Translations under genes and position numbers: made by a program
The notes under the pieces: model-generated
What the model was told of the DNA's origin: nothing
The model's input: only the letters and a program-made list of their open reading frames with translations
Database searches by the model: none
Source: Acidilobaceae archaeon
GTDB lineage: Archaea > Thermoproteota > Thermoprotei_A > Sulfolobales > Acidilobaceae
DNA: 64,000 nucleotides
Reading direction: 5' to 3'
NCBI GenBank assembly: GCA_038897215.1
Contig: JAWAWX010000001.1
Span: 608,001 to 672,000, forward strand
Part shown: piece by piece, positions 55,732-64,000 of the stretch
Position numbering within the stretch: position 1 is the first letter of the stretch
Layout: each line of letters starts with the position of its first letter

Positions 55732-56864
55732 GAGCCGTGGAGGGCTATCTAGTGCTCGAAGACGGGCTCGTAGTCAGAGGCGAGGGCTTCGGAGCACCCG
55801 GAGTAGCCGTAGGCGAGGTCGTCTTCAGCACAGCTCAAGTAGGCTATCCCGAGAGTCTAACAGACCCATCGTATAGAGGGCAGATCCTAATCCTATCCCA
55901 CCCCATGGTTGGAAACTATGGAGTCCCCGAGAAGAGCATAACCCTCCACAAGATCCCGCTCCACTTCGAGTCCGATAGAATCCAGGTAGCCGGGCTCGTC
56001 ATCTCCACTCTAACGAGACCAAGCCACTACGCGTCAGCAATGAGCCTCGACGAGTGGCTGAGAAGAGAGGGAATCCCAGGGCTCCAGGGAGTAGATACAA
56101 GGATGCTCATAAAGAGGATCAGAGAGCGCGGCGTCATGAGAGGAGCCCTCATTGTAGGCAAGCCTCTCGAGAGCGTAGACGAGGTCCTCGAGGAGGTGAG
56201 GAGATTCGACTACGAGAGGCTCAACTTCGTGAGAGAAGTGACGGTCAAAGAGCCAGTGGTTCACAGAAACCCGCACGCGAGCAAGCGGCTAATCCTCTTA
56301 GACTTCGGCGTTAAGTATGGCATCTTGAGAGCGCTCCTAGACAAGGGATTTGAAGTAATCAGAGTCCCCTACGACTCCGACCCGCTTAGATACTACTACG
56401 AGTTCGAGGCAGACGGAGTCGTGGTAAGCAATGGCCCCGGAAACCCTAGGTATCTAGCGGAGAGCACTGACGTCTTGGAGAAGCTGAGAGCAGTCATAGA
56501 GAACGGAGTGCCGACTCTAGGCATATGTCTAGGCAACCAGCTACTATCTATGAGCCTAGGGGCTAGCGTGTTCAAGCTGAAGTACGGGCATAGAGGCATA
56601 AACAAGCCCGTCTACGACCTCAAATCAGGCTTTGGGTTCGTCACGACGCAGAACCATGGCTACGCTGTAGACCTGTCTAGCGCTAGAGGCCTCAGATTGT
56701 GGATGGTAAACATCGACGACAAGACAGTCGAAGGGTTCCTTCACGAGAGTAAGCCTGTACTAGCCGTGCAATTCCATCCAGAAGCCTCTCCGGGCCCGTG
56801 GGACTCAACGTGGGTCTTCGAATACTTCAAGAAGATCGTGGAGAAGGTGGGGAGAAGTGCCTAG
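55728..56864 (+). CDS. carA: Carbamoyl-phosphate synthase small subunit
   Basis: LTDPSY.GQ, SNGPG, GICLG, TQNHG, FHPE. Confidence 0.96.
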   Translation: MRAVEGYLVLEDGLVVRGEGFGAPGVAVGEVVFSTAQVGYPESLTDPSYRGQILILSHPMVGNYGVPEKSITLHKIPLHFESDRIQVAGLVISTLTRPSHYASAMSLDEWLRREGIPGLQGVDTRMLIKRIRERGVMRGALIVGKPLESVDEVLEEVRRFDYERLNFVREVTVKEPVVHRNPHASKRLILLDFGVKYGILRALLDKGFEVIRVPYDSDPLRYYYEFEADGVVVSNGPGNPRYLAESTDVLEKLRAVIENGVPTLGICLGNQLLSMSLGASVFKLKYGHRGINKPVYDLKSGFGFVTTQNHGYAVDLSSARGLRLWMVNIDDKTVEGFLHESKPVLAVQFHPEASPGPWDSTWVFEYFKKIVEKVGRSA

Positions 56865-59800
56865 AGAGTCTGTCAGCAAGGTTTTAGTGATAGGCTCGGG
56901 AGCCATAAAGATAGCTGAAGCAGCCGAGTTCGACTACAGCGGCTCTCAAGCCCTCAAAGCTCTCAAAGAAGAGGGGATTAAGAGTATTCTGATAAATCCT
57001 AACGTGGCGACAATCCAGACTAGCCACGAGCTAGCCGACAGAGTATATCTAATCCCCCTCACTCTAAAAGACGTCTCTAAGGTGATAGAAGCAGAGAGAC
57101 CAGATGGCATAATGGTAGGCTTCGGGGGGCAATCGGCTCTATCTCTAGGAGTAGCTCTCTACGACTCCGGGGTTCTCGAGAAGTATGGAGTCAAGGTTCT
57201 AGGGACTCCCATAGAGGGGATAAGGAGAGCTCTAGATAGAGAACTCTTCAAGAAAACAATGATAGAACACGGTCTCCCCGTGCCTCCCAGCAAGCCCGTG
57301 ACGACTCTAGAGGAGGCTCTAGAGGCGGGCGACGAGATAGGGTATCCTGTGATAGTTAGGGTTAGCTTCAACCTAGGCGGTAGAGGGTCGTTCATAGCCT
57401 GGAGTAGAGGAGAGCTCAGAGAGAAGATCTACAAAGCTATGGCTCACAGCGAGATCCGAAAGCTACTCGTAGAGAAGTATCTCCACCACTGGAAGGAGAT
57501 AGAGTATGAGGTCATGAGGGACAAAGTCGGGCAGAGCGTGGCCGTCGCGTGTTTAGAGAACGTGGACCCCATGGGGGTCCACACGGGAGACTCAATAGTA
57601 GTAGCTCCTTGCCAGACTCTAACCGATAGAGAGTACCAGCTTCTCAGAAAAGCCTCCATAGCGGTCGCTGACTCAATAGGCTTGATCGGAGAGTGCAACG
57701 TGCAGCTAGCTCTAGATCCCACATCTGAACTCTACTATATCATAGAGACAAATCCCAGAATGAGTAGAAGTAGCGCTCTAGCTAGCAAAGCCACAGGCTA
57801 CCCTCTAGCATACATTGCTGCCAAGCTAGCGCTAGGGTATACTCTAGACGAGCTTAAGAATAAGGTTACGGGGGTCACGACTGCTCTCTTCGAGCCCAGT
57901 CTCGACTACGTAGTCGTGAAGGTCCCCAGATGGGATCTCGAGAAGTTCGTGGGAGCAGAAAGAAGTCTGGGTAGCGAGATGATGAGTGTTGGCGAAGTCA
58001 TGGCTATAGGGAGGAATCTCCACGAGGCTTTCCAGAAAGCTATCAGAATGCTCGATATACGCGATGAACTCATAGGAGAATACTACGAGCAAGAAGAGCC
58101 TCTCGAAGCCGTCTTGGGAAGGCTGAGAAGGAGAGAGCCGTATACAATAATGCATATAGCTAAGGCTTTGAAGCTAGGAGCCACGGTAGAAGAGATATAT
58201 GAAGCTAGCGGGGTAGACAAGTACTTCATATATGTCATAGAGGATATAGTCAATGTAGCTGAAGCTCTTAAAAGAAACCCATCGAGAGAACTCGTCGAGA
58301 AAGCTAGGAGATTAGGGTTCACCTGCGAGCAAATCAAGAAGCTAGCCGGTAGAGACGTTGACTGTGAGAGGCCACGCGTTAAGCAGATAGATACTCTAGC
58401 TGGAGAGTGGCCTGCATCCACGAACTATCTCTACGTGAGTCACGATGCTAGCGAGGACGACGTCGAGCCAGCCTCCCACCCTAAAATCATGATCCTAGGT
58501 TCCGGGACGTTTAGAATAGGTGTTAGCGTAGAGTTCGACTGGGCTACAGTCAGCTTCCTAAAGGCGGCTAAGAGGAGAGGCTTCAAGGTGATAATGGTTA
58601 ACTACAACCCCGAAACAGTCTCTACAGACTGGGATGTTAGCGATAGACTATACTTCGAGGAGCTAGCTCTAGAGAGAGTCCTCGATATACATGATTTCGA
58701 GAAACCTGACTACGTTGTAGCCTTTGCAGGAGGCCAGATCCCAAACAATATAGCTAGGAAACTGGAGGAGAGAGGAGTTAAGCTTCTTGGGACGAGCGGG
58801 AGAAGCGTCGACATAGCTGAGGATAGAGCAAAGTTCTCCAAGCTACTCGATAAGCTCGGAATACGTCAACCAGAGTGGATAGAGGCTAAGAGTCTTGAGG
58901 AAGCTCTCAGATTCGCTGAAAGCGTCGGGTATCCCGTTATAGTAAGACCTAGCTACATCATAGGAGGCATGGCTGTGAGACTCGTTAAAGATAGAGACGA
59001 GCTAGAGTCATTCCTGAAACTTGCTAGAGACGTATCGAGAGAGCACCCTGTAGTAGTGTCTAAGTACATAGAGGGGATGGAGGTAGAGGTGGATGCTGTA
59101 TCAGACGCGTCTAGAGTTGTTGGAGTTCTCTCAGAGCACATCGAGCCAGCAGGTGTTCATAGTGGAGACGCTACACACGTAACTCCCCTCGTGAAGACTC
59201 CCCCAGAGTCAGCTAAGGAGATGAAGGAGATAGCCTTGAGTTTAGCCATAGAGCTCGGCATAAGAGGACCCTTCAACATACAATACGTAGTTGATGAGAA
59301 GAAGAGAGTCTACGTGATAGAGCTAAACCTAAGAGCAAGCAGGTCTATGCCCTTCGCCAGCAAGAGTAGAGGCGTAGACTTCATGGAACTCGCTGCTCAA
59401 GCAACACTAGATGGTAGCATAAAGCTAGGAGAGCCAGGAGAGTTCTACGAGATCCCAGCTAAGGCATACGCGGTTAAGACTCCCCAGTTCTCCTGGGCTC
59501 AGATTAGAGGAGCCTACCCGTTCCTCGGACCCGAGATGAGGTCTACCGGTGAAGTCGCGGCTCTCGACTCAGACTACCTCCTAGCTTTAATTAAGAGCTG
59601 GCTAGCAGCTAAGCCGAATAAAGTCCCATCGAGAGGAGCACTAGTGTACACGTACTCCAACGGCTCGAACACTCTTAACGTGACGGCTAAGATTCTCGAG
59701 AAGCTAGGAGTCAAAGTCTATACTCTAGAGGGCGCTCTCACGAGAGTAGGAGAGCCTATCACTAAGGAGGAGGCCCTAAAGCTAATCAGAGAGGGTAGCG

Positions 59801-60000
59801 TAGACCTGGTGGCCACATCGGGCTTCACTCCAGACCTCGACTACAAGATAAGAAGGCTTGCTGTAGACATGAATATACCCATAGTCCTAGACTCCACTCT
59901 AGCTCTAGAGCTAGCTCGAGCTATGGAGAGACTAGCGGTGAGGGGAGACTATGAGGTGAGAGAAGTCTCGGAGTACTGGGTCTTCACTAGGTCGCTCTAA
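56857..60000 (+). CDS. carB: Carbamoyl-phosphate synthase large subunit
   Basis: EFDYSG.QA, two ATP-grasp halves (GVHTGD; GVHSGD), EMRSTGEV. Confidence 0.97.
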   Translation: MPRESVSKVLVIGSGAIKIAEAAEFDYSGSQALKALKEEGIKSILINPNVATIQTSHELADRVYLIPLTLKDVSKVIEAERPDGIMVGFGGQSALSLGVALYDSGVLEKYGVKVLGTPIEGIRRALDRELFKKTMIEHGLPVPPSKPVTTLEEALEAGDEIGYPVIVRVSFNLGGRGSFIAWSRGELREKIYKAMAHSEIRKLLVEKYLHHWKEIEYEVMRDKVGQSVAVACLENVDPMGVHTGDSIVVAPCQTLTDREYQLLRKASIAVADSIGLIGECNVQLALDPTSELYYIIETNPRMSRSSALASKATGYPLAYIAAKLALGYTLDELKNKVTGVTTALFEPSLDYVVVKVPRWDLEKFVGAERSLGSEMMSVGEVMAIGRNLHEAFQKAIRMLDIRDELIGEYYEQEEPLEAVLGRLRRREPYTIMHIAKALKLGATVEEIYEASGVDKYFIYVIEDIVNVAEALKRNPSRELVEKARRLGFTCEQIKKLAGRDVDCERPRVKQIDTLAGEWPASTNYLYVSHDASEDDVEPASHPKIMILGSGTFRIGVSVEFDWATVSFLKAAKRRGFKVIMVNYNPETVSTDWDVSDRLYFEELALERVLDIHDFEKPDYVVAFAGGQIPNNIARKLEERGVKLLGTSGRSVDIAEDRAKFSKLLDKLGIRQPEWIEAKSLEEALRFAESVGYPVIVRPSYIIGGMAVRLVKDRDELESFLKLARDVSREHPVVVSKYIEGMEVEVDAVSDASRVVGVLSEHIEPAGVHSGDATHVTPLVKTPPESAKEMKEIALSLAIELGIRGPFNIQYVVDEKKRVYVIELNLRASRSMPFASKSRGVDFMELAAQATLDGSIKLGEPGEFYEIPAKAYAVKTPQFSWAQIRGAYPFLGPEMRSTGEVAALDSDYLLALIKSWLAAKPNKVPSRGALVYTYSNGSNTLNVTAKILEKLGVKVYTLEGALTRVGEPITKEEALKLIREGSVDLVATSGFTPDLDYKIRRLAVDMNIPIVLDSTLALELARAMERLAVRGDYEVREVSEYWVFTRSL

Positions 60001-60095: not shown

Positions 60096-61328
60096 GTGTT
60101 GCCTAGAGTCTCAATGAGCTACAACACTCTGCTAGATGAGATCGAGGAGGCTCCGACAGTCTCTCTGCTCAGAATCGCTGAGGAGCTGAGGAGAAGCGGA
60201 GCAGACCCCATAATGCTTCTAGCAGGAGAGCCTGGTGTGCCCCCGCCTCTAGAAGTCAGAGAGATGCTTTGCGAAGCTCTCAGAGTAGAGTCGATGAGCC
60301 TCTACTCCTACACGCCGTCGGAGGGGGTGGCTGAGCTGAGGGAAGCCATAGCCTACGACTTGAAGGAGCTAGGGGGGATCGATGTCAAGCCCTCGCAGAT
60401 AGTTATCACAGCGGGAGGCCAGGGAGCGATGTTCTCTTCTCTAGCAGCGATCGCTAGAGAGGGGGACGAGGTCATCCTCGTAGACCCAACCTACTTCGGC
60501 TACAACGGGCTGATCAAGTTCTTCAAGCTTAGAGCTCGACGTATCATTGCTCCAGCCGAGAGAGGCTTCCAACCGGACCCGGAGGCCTTGAAGGAGGCGA
60601 TCAGCCCGGGTAGAACTAAAGCAGTCATCCTCGTCAGTCCAGACAACCCAACGGGCAGGCTTCTCGATAGAAGCGTTGCTAGAGCTATAGCGGAGATAGC
60701 TCAAGACTACGGGCTCTGGATTCTCTATGACGAGCCCTACAAGACTCTGGTCTACGAGGGCGAGCACGTCTACCTCTACGAGCTCGCTCCAGAGAACGTC
60801 CTAGCTCTCAACGCTTTCAGCAAAGACCCGGGCATTCCGGGCTGGAGGCTGGGCTACGTTTACGGGCCGGAGTGGCTGATGAAGAGAGTCGCTATAGCGT
60901 CAGAGGTCTCCGTCTACAACCCCCCCTCTATAGCGCAGGAGCTAGCGCTAAGGTATCTCAGGAATAGAGAGCTAAGGAGGAGGCACATAGAGAGAGTTAG
61001 AAGCATATACGTCGAGCGCAGAGATGTGATGCTTAGAGAGGCGAGCAAGCTTAGAGAAGCGCGGTTCATCAAGCCTGGTGGAGCCATGTTTCTCTTCGTA
61101 GACCTCTCAGCCTACCTGGAGAGAGCGGGCATGACTTCAGAGCAGCTAGCGGAGAAGCTACTAGTAGAGAAGCACGTAGCGACAGTCCCCGGTAGCTTCT
61201 TCGGAGAGTCTACCAGGAGATACCTGAGGCTAACGTTCACCACAGAGACCCCGGAGAGGATCAAGGAGGGGGTCGCGAGGCTCAGAGAGCTACTAGAGGA
61301 GTCCACGACTACCACTCAAAGATTCTGA
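60096..61328 (+). CDS. Class I/II PLP aminotransferase (aspartate aminotransferase-like)
   Basis: SPDNPTG, DEPY, FSKD.GIPGWRLG. Confidence 0.9.
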   Translation: MLPRVSMSYNTLLDEIEEAPTVSLLRIAEELRRSGADPIMLLAGEPGVPPPLEVREMLCEALRVESMSLYSYTPSEGVAELREAIAYDLKELGGIDVKPSQIVITAGGQGAMFSSLAAIAREGDEVILVDPTYFGYNGLIKFFKLRARRIIAPAERGFQPDPEALKEAISPGRTKAVILVSPDNPTGRLLDRSVARAIAEIAQDYGLWILYDEPYKTLVYEGEHVYLYELAPENVLALNAFSKDPGIPGWRLGYVYGPEWLMKRVAIASEVSVYNPPSIAQELALRYLRNRELRRRHIERVRSIYVERRDVMLREASKLREARFIKPGGAMFLFVDLSAYLERAGMTSEQLAEKLLVEKHVATVPGSFFGESTRRYLRLTFTTETPERIKEGVARLRELLEESTTTTQRF

Positions 61329-61404
61329 AATTATGTAATTACGAAAACTATATAGCACGTAGTAACTGACAGATACCCGGTAGTAGCCTCTAGCGTAGGA
61401 GGAG

Positions 61405-61431
61405 AGCATCCTCCACTTCGGAGGTGATGCT
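61405..61431 (+). promoter_or_regulatory. 5'-UTR hairpin sequestering the Shine-Dalgarno sequence
   Basis: AGCATCCTCC-ACTTC-GGAGGTGATGCT; the 3' arm holds the SD GGAGGTGA, 6 nt before an in-frame ATA at 61434. Confidence 0.5.
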
Positions 61432-61433
61432 TT

Positions 61434-62168
61434 ATAGGCAAGAGTAAAGCCTTCATAAGCTATGTTCTCTGGAAAGGGTCCTGTATGCTAGCCGAGGTGC
61501 TAAAAGAGTCTTGCGGAGGCAACCCCACGGCTATAGTAGCTAGAGTCCTCAGAATTAGAGATGGGGACCAGCATCTAGAAGCATGGCTTAGAGTCAGCTT
61601 CGACGACTGGAGCCTCTTCGATCACTTCGAGAGGTCTCTTTTCAAGAGGAAGGTTAAGAGCACGGTCGTGTACAGGGGGAAGAATAACGTAGTCCTATGG
61701 GCTAGGTACGCTTTAAGCACGTCGTGCAGAAGCTGCCTTCTGGTAAGCCCTCCCAGTAGATGCATGCTGAAGACCACGCTGGTGACGCCCGTAGGCGTAA
61801 TACACGAGATCCTCCACATGAACTCAAGCATAGCACACAACGGCCGCAAAGACACAATGGTCCTCATATCGGGTAGCATAAGGGAGATGATGAACTACAT
61901 GCTGACTCCTAGAGAGCAAGAAGTCATATACACAGCGTACTCAAAAGGCTACTACGAGTCTCCCAGAGAGACCACGCTACAAGAGCTAGCCAGAGAACTC
62001 AAGATCAGCGTCTCGACTCTAAACGAAGTTTTGAGAAGTGGAGAGAGGAAGATCATCGAGGCTTTCATAAAACACGACATGCCGCACTTAATGTTTAAAC
62101 GAATACTAGCGAAAGCATGGATTGAGATACCTCAAAGCTCTACTACTAGTAGCGCGAAGAGCGCGTAA
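61434..62168 (+). CDS. Bat/HTH_10 family regulator with Cys-rich N-terminal domain (NarO/DmsR-like); probable ATA start at 61434, tracked ATG at 61485
   Basis: LTPREQEVI..AY.KGYYE.PR..TL.ELA..L.IS.ST..E.LR.GE.K is the HTH_10 signature; Cys pattern C..C..CxxC-x8-C. Confidence 0.85.
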   Translation: MGKSKAFISYVLWKGSCMLAEVLKESCGGNPTAIVARVLRIRDGDQHLEAWLRVSFDDWSLFDHFERSLFKRKVKSTVVYRGKNNVVLWARYALSTSCRSCLLVSPPSRCMLKTTLVTPVGVIHEILHMNSSIAHNGRKDTMVLISGSIREMMNYMLTPREQEVIYTAYSKGYYESPRETTLQELARELKISVSTLNEVLRSGERKIIEAFIKHDMPHLMFKRILAKAWIEIPQSSTTSSAKSA

Positions 62169-62202
62169 GAGAGGCGCAACCTTCTGGAGAGCCCTAGAGA
62201 GC

Positions 62203-62252
62203 CCGAAAGGTTTCGGAACCAGCTATATATTTCTTTTTGAAAATAATTCAAA
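62203..62252 (+). promoter_or_regulatory. Promoter with two operators
   Basis: CCGAAAGGTTTCGG (62203-62216) upstream of TATATAT (62224-62230); TTTGAA-AATAA-TTCAAA (62236-62252) downstream of it. Confidence 0.65.
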
Positions 62253-62268
62253 TAATAGAATTGAGTAG

Positions 62269-63720
62269 GTGGTTCTAGTGAAGGATACCATAAGGCTAGG
62301 CATGAACCTGCCGCTCTTCGTCATAGGGACTCTAATCGTTGGATTGGGTTGCTTTATTGGCATTGTAGGCATATGGGGCTACATGGCTCAAGGAAAGGTT
62401 AGCCCTGAGTGGGTCAAGATAAGTCACGGCCATGTAGCTTGGTGGGGGGTCTTAATACTGATAGCGGCAACAGTCCTACCCGGGCTCAACGTGACCAGGT
62501 CATTTAAGAACCTTGCTGTCATAGTCTGCCTCGTCGCGCCCACAGTGTGGGGAGTCTCGTACTATCTCTACTACGCTAGGGGCGTCGACGCTTTCAAGTA
62601 CCTTCTACCTGTGAGCGAGCTAGCGTTAATGGCCGTCCTCCTAGCTATAGCGCTCCAGGCTTCGGGCTTCCAGCTACCTGGGATCACGGCGCACGAGGTC
62701 GAGAAGAGCCCCTACGAGATAGAGACGGGCATAGAGGTACCCAGGAAGATGTTCCTCGTGCCCACAGTCATCACAGTTCTAGGAGTTCTCGCAGGCTTCT
62801 ACATGACAGTATTCTTCAGAGCCGCGGAGAAGCCTATAGAGCCTGCCGCGCTAGTTCAGCTACACACTCATACAGTGTTGCTGGCAGCTAGCGCTGTGCT
62901 GATGCTTCTAGCGCTGAAGGTTCTCGGAGTCGACGAGGCTATCTTCGACTCAGCTCTGAGGATCTCACAGATAGCTCTACCTCTAGTCTTCCTAGGGCTC
63001 CTGGTCTTCATCCTATTCGGGACACACAGCATAGTCTGGGTTCTCCCTGCAGGCATATACTTCCTGCTACCTCTCGCTGTGTTCCTGGCTAGCATAGGGT
63101 TAATAGCAACGAAGCCAGTGGTGCCTTTCCACTCAGCTCTCAAAGCCTCTATGGCTTTCGCTCTAGCCGTGCTCTTGATACTCATCGCTACCGGCGCCTA
63201 CATAGCGCTCAGGTGGGACACGTCTCCCTACGTGACGGTAACGTTCAGGCAGCCAGAAGGGTGGCCTCACGTAGGCCCGTACTACGACCCTGCTAAGGGC
63301 TATCCGGGCACAGCCCCGGCCAGGAACACGCCTAGAGGGCTGGAGAACGCTCACTACAGTCCCGGAAGCTGGCTACACGTCGCTGTAGCGTGGCTGGTAT
63401 GCCTAGGGCTGCTCTCCGCAGGAGGAGTCTTCACAAACGTGCTGAACAAGCCAGGGCTCTTCTACCTCTTCGCGATCACCATCCCCCTAGCTCCATTCTT
63501 CAACGCGCTCGGAAGATACCTAGCCTGGTGGCCTGAGCTAGGCCCAGCGGCTCCAGCGCTTATGGTTACAGACCCCACGTTCACTGGCGCTCCGGGCGGC
63601 ATAGGAGCACTCTGGTACGCAGGCCACCCACTCAAGGCTTTCAACATATTGAGCCTAGCGATACTAGGCTTGGTAGTCATAAGCATCATAGCTCAAAAGA
63701 GAGCTAGCTCCGGCTCCTAG
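62269..63720 (+). CDS. Uncharacterised ~12-TM membrane protein with His motifs
   Basis: Hydrophobic helices; SHGH, LHTH and AHYSPGSWLH segments. Confidence 0.8.
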   Translation: MVLVKDTIRLGMNLPLFVIGTLIVGLGCFIGIVGIWGYMAQGKVSPEWVKISHGHVAWWGVLILIAATVLPGLNVTRSFKNLAVIVCLVAPTVWGVSYYLYYARGVDAFKYLLPVSELALMAVLLAIALQASGFQLPGITAHEVEKSPYEIETGIEVPRKMFLVPTVITVLGVLAGFYMTVFFRAAEKPIEPAALVQLHTHTVLLAASAVLMLLALKVLGVDEAIFDSALRISQIALPLVFLGLLVFILFGTHSIVWVLPAGIYFLLPLAVFLASIGLIATKPVVPFHSALKASMAFALAVLLILIATGAYIALRWDTSPYVTVTFRQPEGWPHVGPYYDPAKGYPGTAPARNTPRGLENAHYSPGSWLHVAVAWLVCLGLLSAGGVFTNVLNKPGLFYLFAITIPLAPFFNALGRYLAWWPELGPAAPALMVTDPTFTGAPGGIGALWYAGHPLKAFNILSLAILGLVVISIIAQKRASSGS

Positions 63721-63816: not shown

Positions 63817-64000
63817 CTAGGACTTAGCGCTTCTCGCCACATATCTGGCTATTGATGCTGCTATGTTGACTCCCGTGACTCTAGCTAGGGTTTTGAACTC
63901 GGGGACTACGTTTACTTCGTTGACTAGTAGTCCCCCCTCGCGAGCGTAGAGCATGTCCACTCCCGCTATCTCAGCCTTTACTGCTCTAGCTGCTCTTATC
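63817..64000 (-). CDS. LysX/ArgX/RimK-family ATP-grasp ligase, C-terminal part (5' end outside the window)
   Basis: Manual translation ...AEIAGVDMLYAREGGLLVNEVNVVPEFKTLARVTGVNIA...*; matches the GVD and EVN..PEF motifs. Confidence 0.85.
   Translation of the reverse strand, partial: IRAARAVKAEIAGVDMLYAREGGLLVNEVNVVPEFKTLARVTGVNIAASIARYVARSAKS

Follow-up and report, generated by a model that had tools for sequence, protein, structure and literature searches.

A putative NarO/DmsR-like regulatory module with an unannotated 12-helix membrane protein in an Acidilobaceae archaeon

The 64,000-nt stretch of Acidilobaceae DNA analysed here (contig JAWAWX010000001.1, positions 608,001 to 672,000; referred to below as the window) carries on its + strand a regulator gene with a C-terminal HTH_10 DNA-binding domain and, directly after it, a gene for a membrane protein with 12 transmembrane (TM) helices. 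Taken as a whole, the two genes are best explained as a dedicated local regulatory module of the NarO/DmsR kind, a reading considered probable. Comparison of related loci makes the link between regulator, operator and target its most secure part, and this link is judged likely. From its genomic context and Cys layout, the regulator may work like NarO and DmsR, serving respiratory genes as a redox or oxygen sensor that depends on its cysteines, a proposal given slightly less than an even chance; binding of haem or metal by the target and a role for it in handling nitric oxide (NO) or O2, both suggested by fold and His placement, are a little more tentative still. Regulation of this kind is known, and the module couples it to a protein family that has no annotation. 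Its components are as follows (AF2, AlphaFold2).

61434..62168, + strand: Cys-bearing HTH_10 regulator, 244 aa from an ATA start (HTH_10 match, alignment, AF2 model)
62203..62216, no strand assigned: operator box CCGAAAGGTTTCGG, a 14-bp palindrome with half-sites CCGAA and TTCGG and a 4-nt spacer (predicted, comparative)
62217-62223, + strand: position of the TFB recognition element (BRE), between the box and the TATA box
62224..62231, + strand: TATA box TATATATT of the membrane-protein gene, 7 nt after the box
62268..62272, + strand: Shine-Dalgarno (SD)-like GGTGG before GTG 62278 (inferred)
62278..63720, + strand: 12-TM membrane protein of an unannotated family, 480 aa from GTG (AF2, fold search, alignment)

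A single-copy predicted operator at the target promoter

The box CCGAAAGGTTTCGG is expected in about 0.02 copies per window, and 2 of 100 shuffles contained one. A scan of the whole genome (G000; 1,159,524 bp), proposed in a preliminary description of this DNA made from its letters alone, found a single exact copy of CCGAA-N4-TTCGG, which is the box at the target promoter. The eight other sites with one mismatch all lie inside open reading frames (ORFs) of at least 253 codons and have no TATA box after them, leaving the window box as the sole intergenic near-match in the genome. The preliminary description had also placed the box just upstream of the TATA box of the next gene, which proved correct, as it abuts the BRE/TATA region on the upstream side. 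Since the exact box is present once and the window regulator is the only HTH_10 gene of the genome, the sequence points to a single regulator that serves a single target through a single operator.

Conservation of the gene pair and box in orthologous loci had been set beforehand as the test on which the proposal could be refuted, and both were found to be conserved. Full-length regulator homologues adjoin the membrane-protein gene in loci L001, L004, L005/L006, L007 (an Acidilobaceae metagenome-assembled genome, MAG), L008 (Methanodesulfokora, Korarchaeia) and L009, lying upstream of it in some loci and downstream in others. The box was present at the membrane-gene promoter with 0-2 mismatches in 8/8 loci (the window and seven others, from Thermoproteota and Korarchaeia), and in all eight a TATA-like A/T-rich hexamer follows it after 5-7 nt, with the start codon 50-69 nt from the end of the box. 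In L002/G007 the box is kept at this promoter with the regulator not adjacent, the G007 regulator being encoded elsewhere in the genome and split over two contig ends; G001 lacks both genes. No box with up to one mismatch was found within 200 nt upstream of the membrane-protein gene in 25 other family loci, drawn from Caldarchaeales, Nitrosocaldus, Archaeoglobaceae, Sulfolobales, Pyrobaculum and bacteria, in whose flanks no regulator homologue was found and which include L003, with a different Cys-bearing HTH_10 protein. The background for a box of this quality was 7/1289 windows of 230 nt. Such co-occurrence of box and regulator looks like the pattern predicted by a regulator-operator pair.

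As the box lies 35 nt after the regulator stop codon and is followed by a T-rich run, the palindrome could also fold as a hairpin that terminates or stabilises the regulator transcript at its 3' end. This was rejected on the comparative positions of the box and is considered extremely improbable: in L005, L007 and L008 the regulator lies downstream of the membrane-protein gene and the box still stands at the promoter of the latter, as it also does in L002/G007 without an adjacent regulator. Between conserved arms the spacer takes several forms (AGGT, AGTT, AATA, CGCG or CATG), and the arms of L008 and L004 have lost their complementarity. That the arms are kept as sequence, and not by compensatory change, argues for a protein site over a hairpin.

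The preliminary description had further named a CGAA-N4-TTCG promoter box from haloarchaea, and this was borne out for the nir, nor and nos genes: the corresponding promoters of Haloferax mediterranei carry CGAACATGTTCG or CGAATATGTTCG 66-79 nt before the ATG (PMC10062603, PMC11218638). The protein that binds this box in H. mediterranei has not been identified, and no NarO homologue was reported there (PMC10062603). An exact CGAATCCGTTCG is present in the narO-nar intergenic region of Haloferax volcanii pHV3, a weak match given that six such 12-mers occur in 45 kb.

The position of the box also bears on the sign of regulation. In archaea, an activator is the more typical occupant of a site upstream of the BRE, whereas repressors mostly bind over the TATA box or the start of transcription; by this general rule the site found here would suit an activator better. 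The same module could nevertheless operate with the regulator as a repressor that hinders TFB/TBP at the BRE until a signal releases it; with only 5-7 nt between the end of the box and the TATA box, a bound dimer may overlap the BRE, and NarO itself has been described to repress the dms operon in a nitrate-dependent manner (PMC10062603). Mutation of the haloarchaeal box, however, lowers nor and nos promoter activity (PMC10062603, PMC11218638), and repression is regarded as an unlikely mode of action for the present regulator.

The regulator and its cysteines

The following features of the regulator gene are referred to below.

61348..61355, + strand: TATA-like CTATATAG, candidate regulator promoter (read from sequence, position only)
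61420..61428, + strand: SD-like GGAGGTGAT, 5 nt before ATA 61434 (inferred from spacing)
61482..61484, + strand: Cys17 codon (TGT); the residue is kept in 90% or more of the 29 family members
61725..61736, + strand: invariant pair Cys98-x2-Cys101 (29-member family; spacer of 2-7 residues)
61902..62060, + strand: HTH_10 DNA-binding domain, residues 157-209 in ATA numbering (Pfam; hhalign against the NarO family, 98.2%)

Assignment of the gene product as an HTH_10 regulator was confirmed by its match to PF04967 (E 1.5e-17). Gene callers start the regulator at ATG 61485 (ORF 61485-62168, 227 aa); the frame is open from 61428, with an in-frame TGA at 61425. An N-terminal strand, I-S-Y-V-L-W-K-G-S-C, is encoded 5' of ATG 61485 and is present in every homologue, and the segment coding for it differs from that of L001 by synonymous third-position changes only. 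As this conserved strand precedes ATG 61485, translation must begin 5' of 61455, in a stretch that offers neither ATG nor GTG nor TTG as a start. In the alignment with homologue P0072 (M-S-S-S-K-A-Y, against I-G-K-S-K-A-F in the window), ATA 61434 falls at Met1, and it stands 5 nt 3' of GGAGGTGAT, which makes numbering from the ATA, as used in the preliminary description, reasonable. The ATA likely represents an ATG-to-ATA change: the codon may be in use as a near-cognate start, the start may have mutated or be decaying, or the base call may be wrong.

Two candidate features of the regulator's own upstream region were considered and rejected. A structured 5' leader at the regulator SD (GGAGG/CCTCC repeats) gave a folding z-score of -0.96, no better than shuffles. 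Autoregulation through the same box was dismissed because no site with fewer than three mismatches was found within 200 nt upstream of any of seven regulator genes; upstream of the window regulator, no CCGAA-N4-TTCGG with fewer than four mismatches was present.

All five cysteines named in the preliminary description (Cys17, Cys27, Cys98, Cys101 and Cys110) are present; among the 29 family members, Cys27 and Cys110 are not conserved, and a fourth cysteine occurs at differing places in different subclades. The spacer of the invariant pair ranges across the family from CxxC and Cx3C up to Cx7C. In much more distant HTH_10 proteins a CxxC is kept at the C98/C101 position, in some of them with another cysteine 7-8 residues on.

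The NarO sensor motif and HTH_10 domain had been cited in the preliminary description, and both were recovered when narO was read from pHV3: the H. volcanii protein consists of DmsR_N (PF24277, E 4e-39) and HTH_10, and has C17 and C-x-C-x7-C. In nine haloarchaeal NarO homologues C17, C81 and C83 are invariant, and C91 (in G-C-P-V) is present in most. Neither the window regulator nor any of the 29 family members matched DmsR_N or BAT at E<=1. An hhalign comparison of the regulator family with the nine NarO homologues gave 98.2%, significant over HTH_10 only; for the N-domain, the profile-profile comparison gave E 0.08 with a probability of <1%, its best path pairing C17 with C17 and C-P-L with C-P-V. 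A single-sequence hhalign alignment that had extended over residues 99-156 (96.8%) was lost with the nine-sequence NarO profile, and homology of the N-domain to NarO on this basis was discarded. The NarO/DmsR-like character claimed for the regulator therefore applies to its architecture and, in order though not in spacing, to its Cys layout; with 0/29 DmsR_N matches, it is not a detectable DmsR_N member.

In the AF2 model of the regulator (pLDDT 90), residues 16-93 form a ferredoxin-like lobe inserted in a second beta-rich lobe (strand 7-13 and residues 110-148), followed by the HTH_10 domain. The model places C17 and C98/C101 on the two inter-lobe connections, which by this predicted topology must lie close together. 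No solved structure clearly matched the N-domain (Foldseek, E<=0.001), and the best VIA matches, with Z of up to 8.7 (over 69 residues), were generic ferredoxin-like domains. A homodimer was predicted with an ipSAE of 0.67 in three runs, as against 0.00 for the best of three controls, with contact agreement of at least 81% and partner pLDDT of at least 78; this mark was reached by 20/30 solved homo-pairs and 1/23 solved single chains. In the model, the last HTH helix and the N-domain both contribute to the interface, the latter in part through residues 106-113, which adjoin the Cys loop, and a dimer of this kind fits an operator with two half-sites.

The cysteines may instead form a structural zinc site, in which case the regulator would sense a small ligand in its N-domain or be constitutive. 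This is a minority possibility, consistent with the presence of only three conserved cysteines and a variable spacer (CxxC to Cx7C), a point that also counts against a redox sensor, and with the resemblance of the lobes, at low Z, to ferredoxin-like and ACT-type folds (NikR C-domain and ACT repressor, Z ~6). It is opposed by the respiratory contexts of the regulators (nar, type II dimethyl sulfoxide (DMSO) reductase and multihaem cytochrome; see below) and by the collinearity of the Cys layout with that of NarO, which has been described as an oxygen sensor (PMC11218638).

The target membrane protein

The ORF lister starts the membrane-protein gene at 62269. Because the homologues begin M-K-D-T-I, the true start is most likely GTG 62278, as read from the alignment. 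The AF2 model (pLDDT 86, pTM 0.90) has 12 long helices and, with seven invariant His residues, bears out the earlier description of a 12-TM protein with a His motif. Numbered by the ORF from 62269, these are H53, H55, H199, H201, H362, H370 and H453; in the model the pairs lie near the starts of helices 2 (H53, H55), 6 (H199, H201) and 10 (H362, H370), with H453 on helix 12. Further invariant residues are R356, E359, Q197, K50, K456, N412 and R416.

The protein has no Pfam or NCBIfam family (in Pfam, only a sub-threshold match of its second repeat to DUF2871, E 0.005), and no match to COX1 (PF00115) was found at E<=1. A profile search of PDB sequences found no oxidase subunit I; its lone match, to cytochrome oxidase subunit 2 (E 0.035), was set aside as a hydrophobic stretch without meaning. 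The VIA search matched the model to CcoN of cbb3 oxidase (3mk7_A) with Z 21.7 (385 aligned residues, root-mean-square deviation 4.2 Å), to NorB (4xyd_A) with Z 21.1, and to aa3, bo3, ba3 and qNOR with Z 17-19, the next unrelated matches having Z 8-11; the top Foldseek match was NorB (3o0r_B, E 7.5e-4, probability 1.00). The predicted fold is that of haem-copper oxidase/NorB subunit I. The term metalloprotein used in the preliminary description can thus be sharpened to a predicted haem-copper oxidase/NorB fold, with the reservation that the His pattern is non-canonical.

The chain is probably a triplicated four-helix unit. Units 1 and 2 align with E 5.8e-4 and HxH in register; unit 3 gave E 0.23, which is not significant. 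Unit 1, the first four helices, matched styrene oxide isomerase (8pnu_G) with Z 10.8 over 125 aligned residues at 18% identity.

It was also considered that the target is not a redox enzyme at all but a His-lined metal transporter or handler, or a haem-dependent isomerase-like protein built of three modules like that of styrene oxide isomerase. The isomerase match of the first four helices, the weak DUF2871 match of the second repeat and the alignment of repeats 1 and 2 are in keeping with this, as is the occurrence, within a few kb in two distant loci, of NikR with a P-type ATPase or of a ZIP transporter. Those neighbours are not conserved, however, the whole-protein match to oxidase and nitric oxide reductase (NOR) subunit I is far stronger (Z 21), and the regulator family is tied to respiratory operons, so that a non-redox function is thought unlikely.

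Relatives of the membrane protein number about 55 clusters at 90% identity in a collection of 5.8 billion proteins, none of them named. The family is patchy, occurring in 2/31 genomes of the relative set with one copy interrupted by TAG, and it extends to Caldarchaeales, Nitrosocaldus, Archaeoglobaceae and some Omnitrophota. Homologues with 32-38% identity were seen in bacterial MAGs labelled Waddliaceae, Planctomycetota and Omnitrophota (L027, L028, L032-L034), a distribution that suggests inter-domain transfer. The interrupted copy (L038/L039, G007:C63:31790-33213) is an orthologous gene with an in-frame TAG and a two-piece match, and is either a pseudogene or an assembly error; L002 (P0003), a metagenomic near-identical copy of this G007 gene, is intact. 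Nothing relevant was found in the literature on DUF2871, or linking styrene oxide isomerase, haem-copper oxidases and NnrS.

Respiratory contexts of the regulator family and box

The regulator profile was searched against 31 genomes (G000 and 30 relatives), and homologous regulators were located next to nar and DMSO-reductase-type operons, in keeping with the comparison with NarO and DmsR drawn in the preliminary description; in the window the neighbouring gene encodes a protein of putative function only. In G008 a full-length homologue lies beside narG, narH (TIGR01660, 700 bits, above cut-off), narI and the NarK transporter; at this site (L045/L065, G008:C38) the nar set is complete and the regulator homologue is divergent and at a contig end. 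No CCGAA-N4-TTCGG was found before G008 narG. G023 has a full-length homologue after an operon for a type II DMSO reductase (alpha, beta and chaperone genes); before that operon no full box was found, only a half-site with two mismatches next to a TATA box. The regulator family, found in Thermoproteota and Korarchaeia, is attached to nar, to type II DMSO reductase and to the present membrane protein.

The box was also encountered with other regulators. At the syntenic site in G004 (L047, G004:C270, 3509-7159), a different Cys-bearing HTH_10 gene (C-x-C-x5-C-P-L) lies directly after the orthologous aminotransferase gene (54% identity) and is followed by the identical 14-mer CCGAAAGGTTTCGG, 3' of which are a gene for a four-CxxCH cytochrome c and then one for a Tat-signal 4Fe-4S dicluster protein. 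It seems from this arrangement that the regulatory site stayed in place and one target was exchanged for another. In L003 (1-5634), another Cys-bearing HTH_10 gene lies between the membrane-protein gene and a molybdopterin oxidoreductase gene, with CCGAATGGTTACGG preceding the oxidoreductase and CCGTAAGCTTACGG preceding the regulator; the membrane-protein gene of L003 has no box, and its promoter carries another palindrome, CTACAT-N12-ATGTAG. Because of the G004 and L003 contexts, boxes of the CCGAA-N4-TTCGG type appear to mark respiratory-gene promoters in these archaea, where they would be read by HTH_10 domains joined to several kinds of Cys-bearing N-domains.

In G000 itself, a genome search with PF00115 found no COX1-type oxidase, and the genome has two molybdoenzymes, both encoded in Psr/Phs-like three-gene operons, on account of which the organism looks like an anaerobic sulfur-compound respirer. 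These two operons are paralogous and lie outside the window (G000:C1:723784-728021 and 374998-379211); each encodes a molybdopterin subunit, a 189-aa iron-sulfur subunit and an NrfD-like anchor, the N-termini of the iron-sulfur subunits being nearly identical. Within the window, carB (56857-60000) and a class I/II aminotransferase gene (60096-61328) lie 5' of the module. At 63817-64000 on the - strand is the 3' end of a convergent gene unrelated to the module, the product of which has an ATP-grasp-like terminus (RimK/LysX-type).

Proposed mechanism and significance

The analysis establishes the domain content, the single occurrence and conservation of the box, its co-occurrence with the regulator, the fold and the genomic contexts. 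From these we infer DNA binding, the sign of regulation, a Cys-bound metal or redox signal, and the cofactors and chemistry of the target, and propose the following course of events. The regulator, which is the sole HTH_10 protein of the genome, most likely acts as a homodimer in which the Cys triad (C17, C98 and C101) would sit at the hinge of a two-lobed alpha/beta N-domain, next to the predicted dimer interface. The dimer would occupy both half-sites of CCGAA-N4-TTCGG, abutting the BRE/TATA region of the neighbouring gene from upstream, and in this bound state would control, and most likely activate, transcription of that single gene. The product, a stand-alone 12-TM protein, most likely contains haem, a non-haem metal or both, and its substrate would be a small oxidant, for instance NO or O2; the organism has no canonical oxidase. 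A second Cys-bearing HTH_10 type would use the same box before a multihaem cytochrome operon.

A bolder and rather improbable extension of this proposal is that the target is an unrecognised, cofactor-divergent branch of the haem-copper oxidases and NORs, present in anaerobic archaea that have no canonical oxidase and placed, in Thermoproteota, under a NarO-like Cys switch and an operator type shared with haloarchaeal denitrification promoters. Acting on its own, and perhaps driven by quinol, it would then reduce or detoxify NO or O2, and its control would reflect an ancient cross-phylum HTH_10 regulatory code for nitrogen-oxide respiration.

Several observations weigh against the module as proposed. 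The link between regulator, box and gene is a comparative one, and the box-bearing loci are interrelated, so that the co-occurrence counts are not independent. The N-domain of the regulator shows no significant sequence similarity to DmsR_N or NarO and has no clear structural relative, and without a canonical start in G000 the regulator may be poorly expressed or decaying. As for the target, helix 7 has no His, and there is neither a partner subunit nor a COX1 signal; its fold alone does not imply oxidase or NOR chemistry, and its gene, in loci beyond the clade that bears the regulator, lacks conserved neighbours from which a function could be read.

The regulation of respiration in Thermoproteota is almost unknown, and no literature on HTH_10 regulators in Crenarchaeota was found in the papers searched. 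The locus offers a minimal testable system of one regulator, one operator and one target. As the operator matches a box that is active in the nor and nos promoters of haloarchaea, different archaeal phyla may share a recognition code. With the predicted fold of O2- and NO-reducing enzymes and a different ligand pattern, the target bears on two questions: how oxidases and NORs arose from haem modules of four helices, and how NO or O2 is dealt with by strict anaerobes.

Comparison with known systems

The predicted target protein resembles subunit I of haem-copper oxidases and NORs (3mk7_A, 3o0r_B/4xyd_A and the qNOR 3ayg_A) in its 12 TM helices, arranged in three four-helix arcs, and in its conserved His residues on helices 2, 6 and 10, which in the oxidases carry redox-centre ligands. 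It differs from them in sequence (about 8-12% identity, no PF00115 match) and in the distribution of these residues: canonical oxidases have one His on helix 2, one on helix 6, two on helix 7 and two on helix 10, whereas in the target helix 7 has none, helices 2, 6 and 10 have a pair each and helix 12 has a single one. Neither a gene for subunit II or NorC nor a fused quinol domain was seen next to or within the membrane-protein gene in the window or in the loci examined. Each third of the protein also looks, in the model, like the haem-binding modules of styrene oxide isomerase (8pnu) and DUF2871, being a four-helix unit with His at the start of the second helix; unlike these, the target would have three diverged units fused in one chain, and nothing suggests isomerase chemistry.

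The operator box resembles the semi-palindromic motif CGAAYATDKTYG of H. mediterranei (PMC10062603), with the same half-sites and a 4-nt spacer, and the boxes of L005 and L008 carry the CATG spacer of that motif. The distance to the start codon is similar, at 66-79 nt for the motif and 50-69 nt from the end of the box in the module. Unlike the haloarchaeal motif, the module's box has the longer arms CCGAA/TTCGG and occurs as a single copy.

The regulator differs from NarO and DmsR in its phylum and in its target, which is neither a molybdoenzyme nor a denitrification enzyme of known type. Its Cys pattern, in full C17...C98-x2-C101-x8-C110, follows the family pattern C-Xn-C-x2-C with three conserved cysteines, and not the C-Xn-C-x-C-x7-C of NarO; the order is collinear and the spacing differs. 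Like NarO and DmsR, it is a small two-part regulator of about 210-245 aa, with a Cys-bearing N-domain and a C-terminal HTH_10 domain. It shares with NarO an early cysteine at position 17, a later Cys cluster ending in C-P-[LV], a gene that (in relatives of the window regulator) adjoins the respiratory nar genes, and a palindrome of the CGAA-N4-TTCG type.

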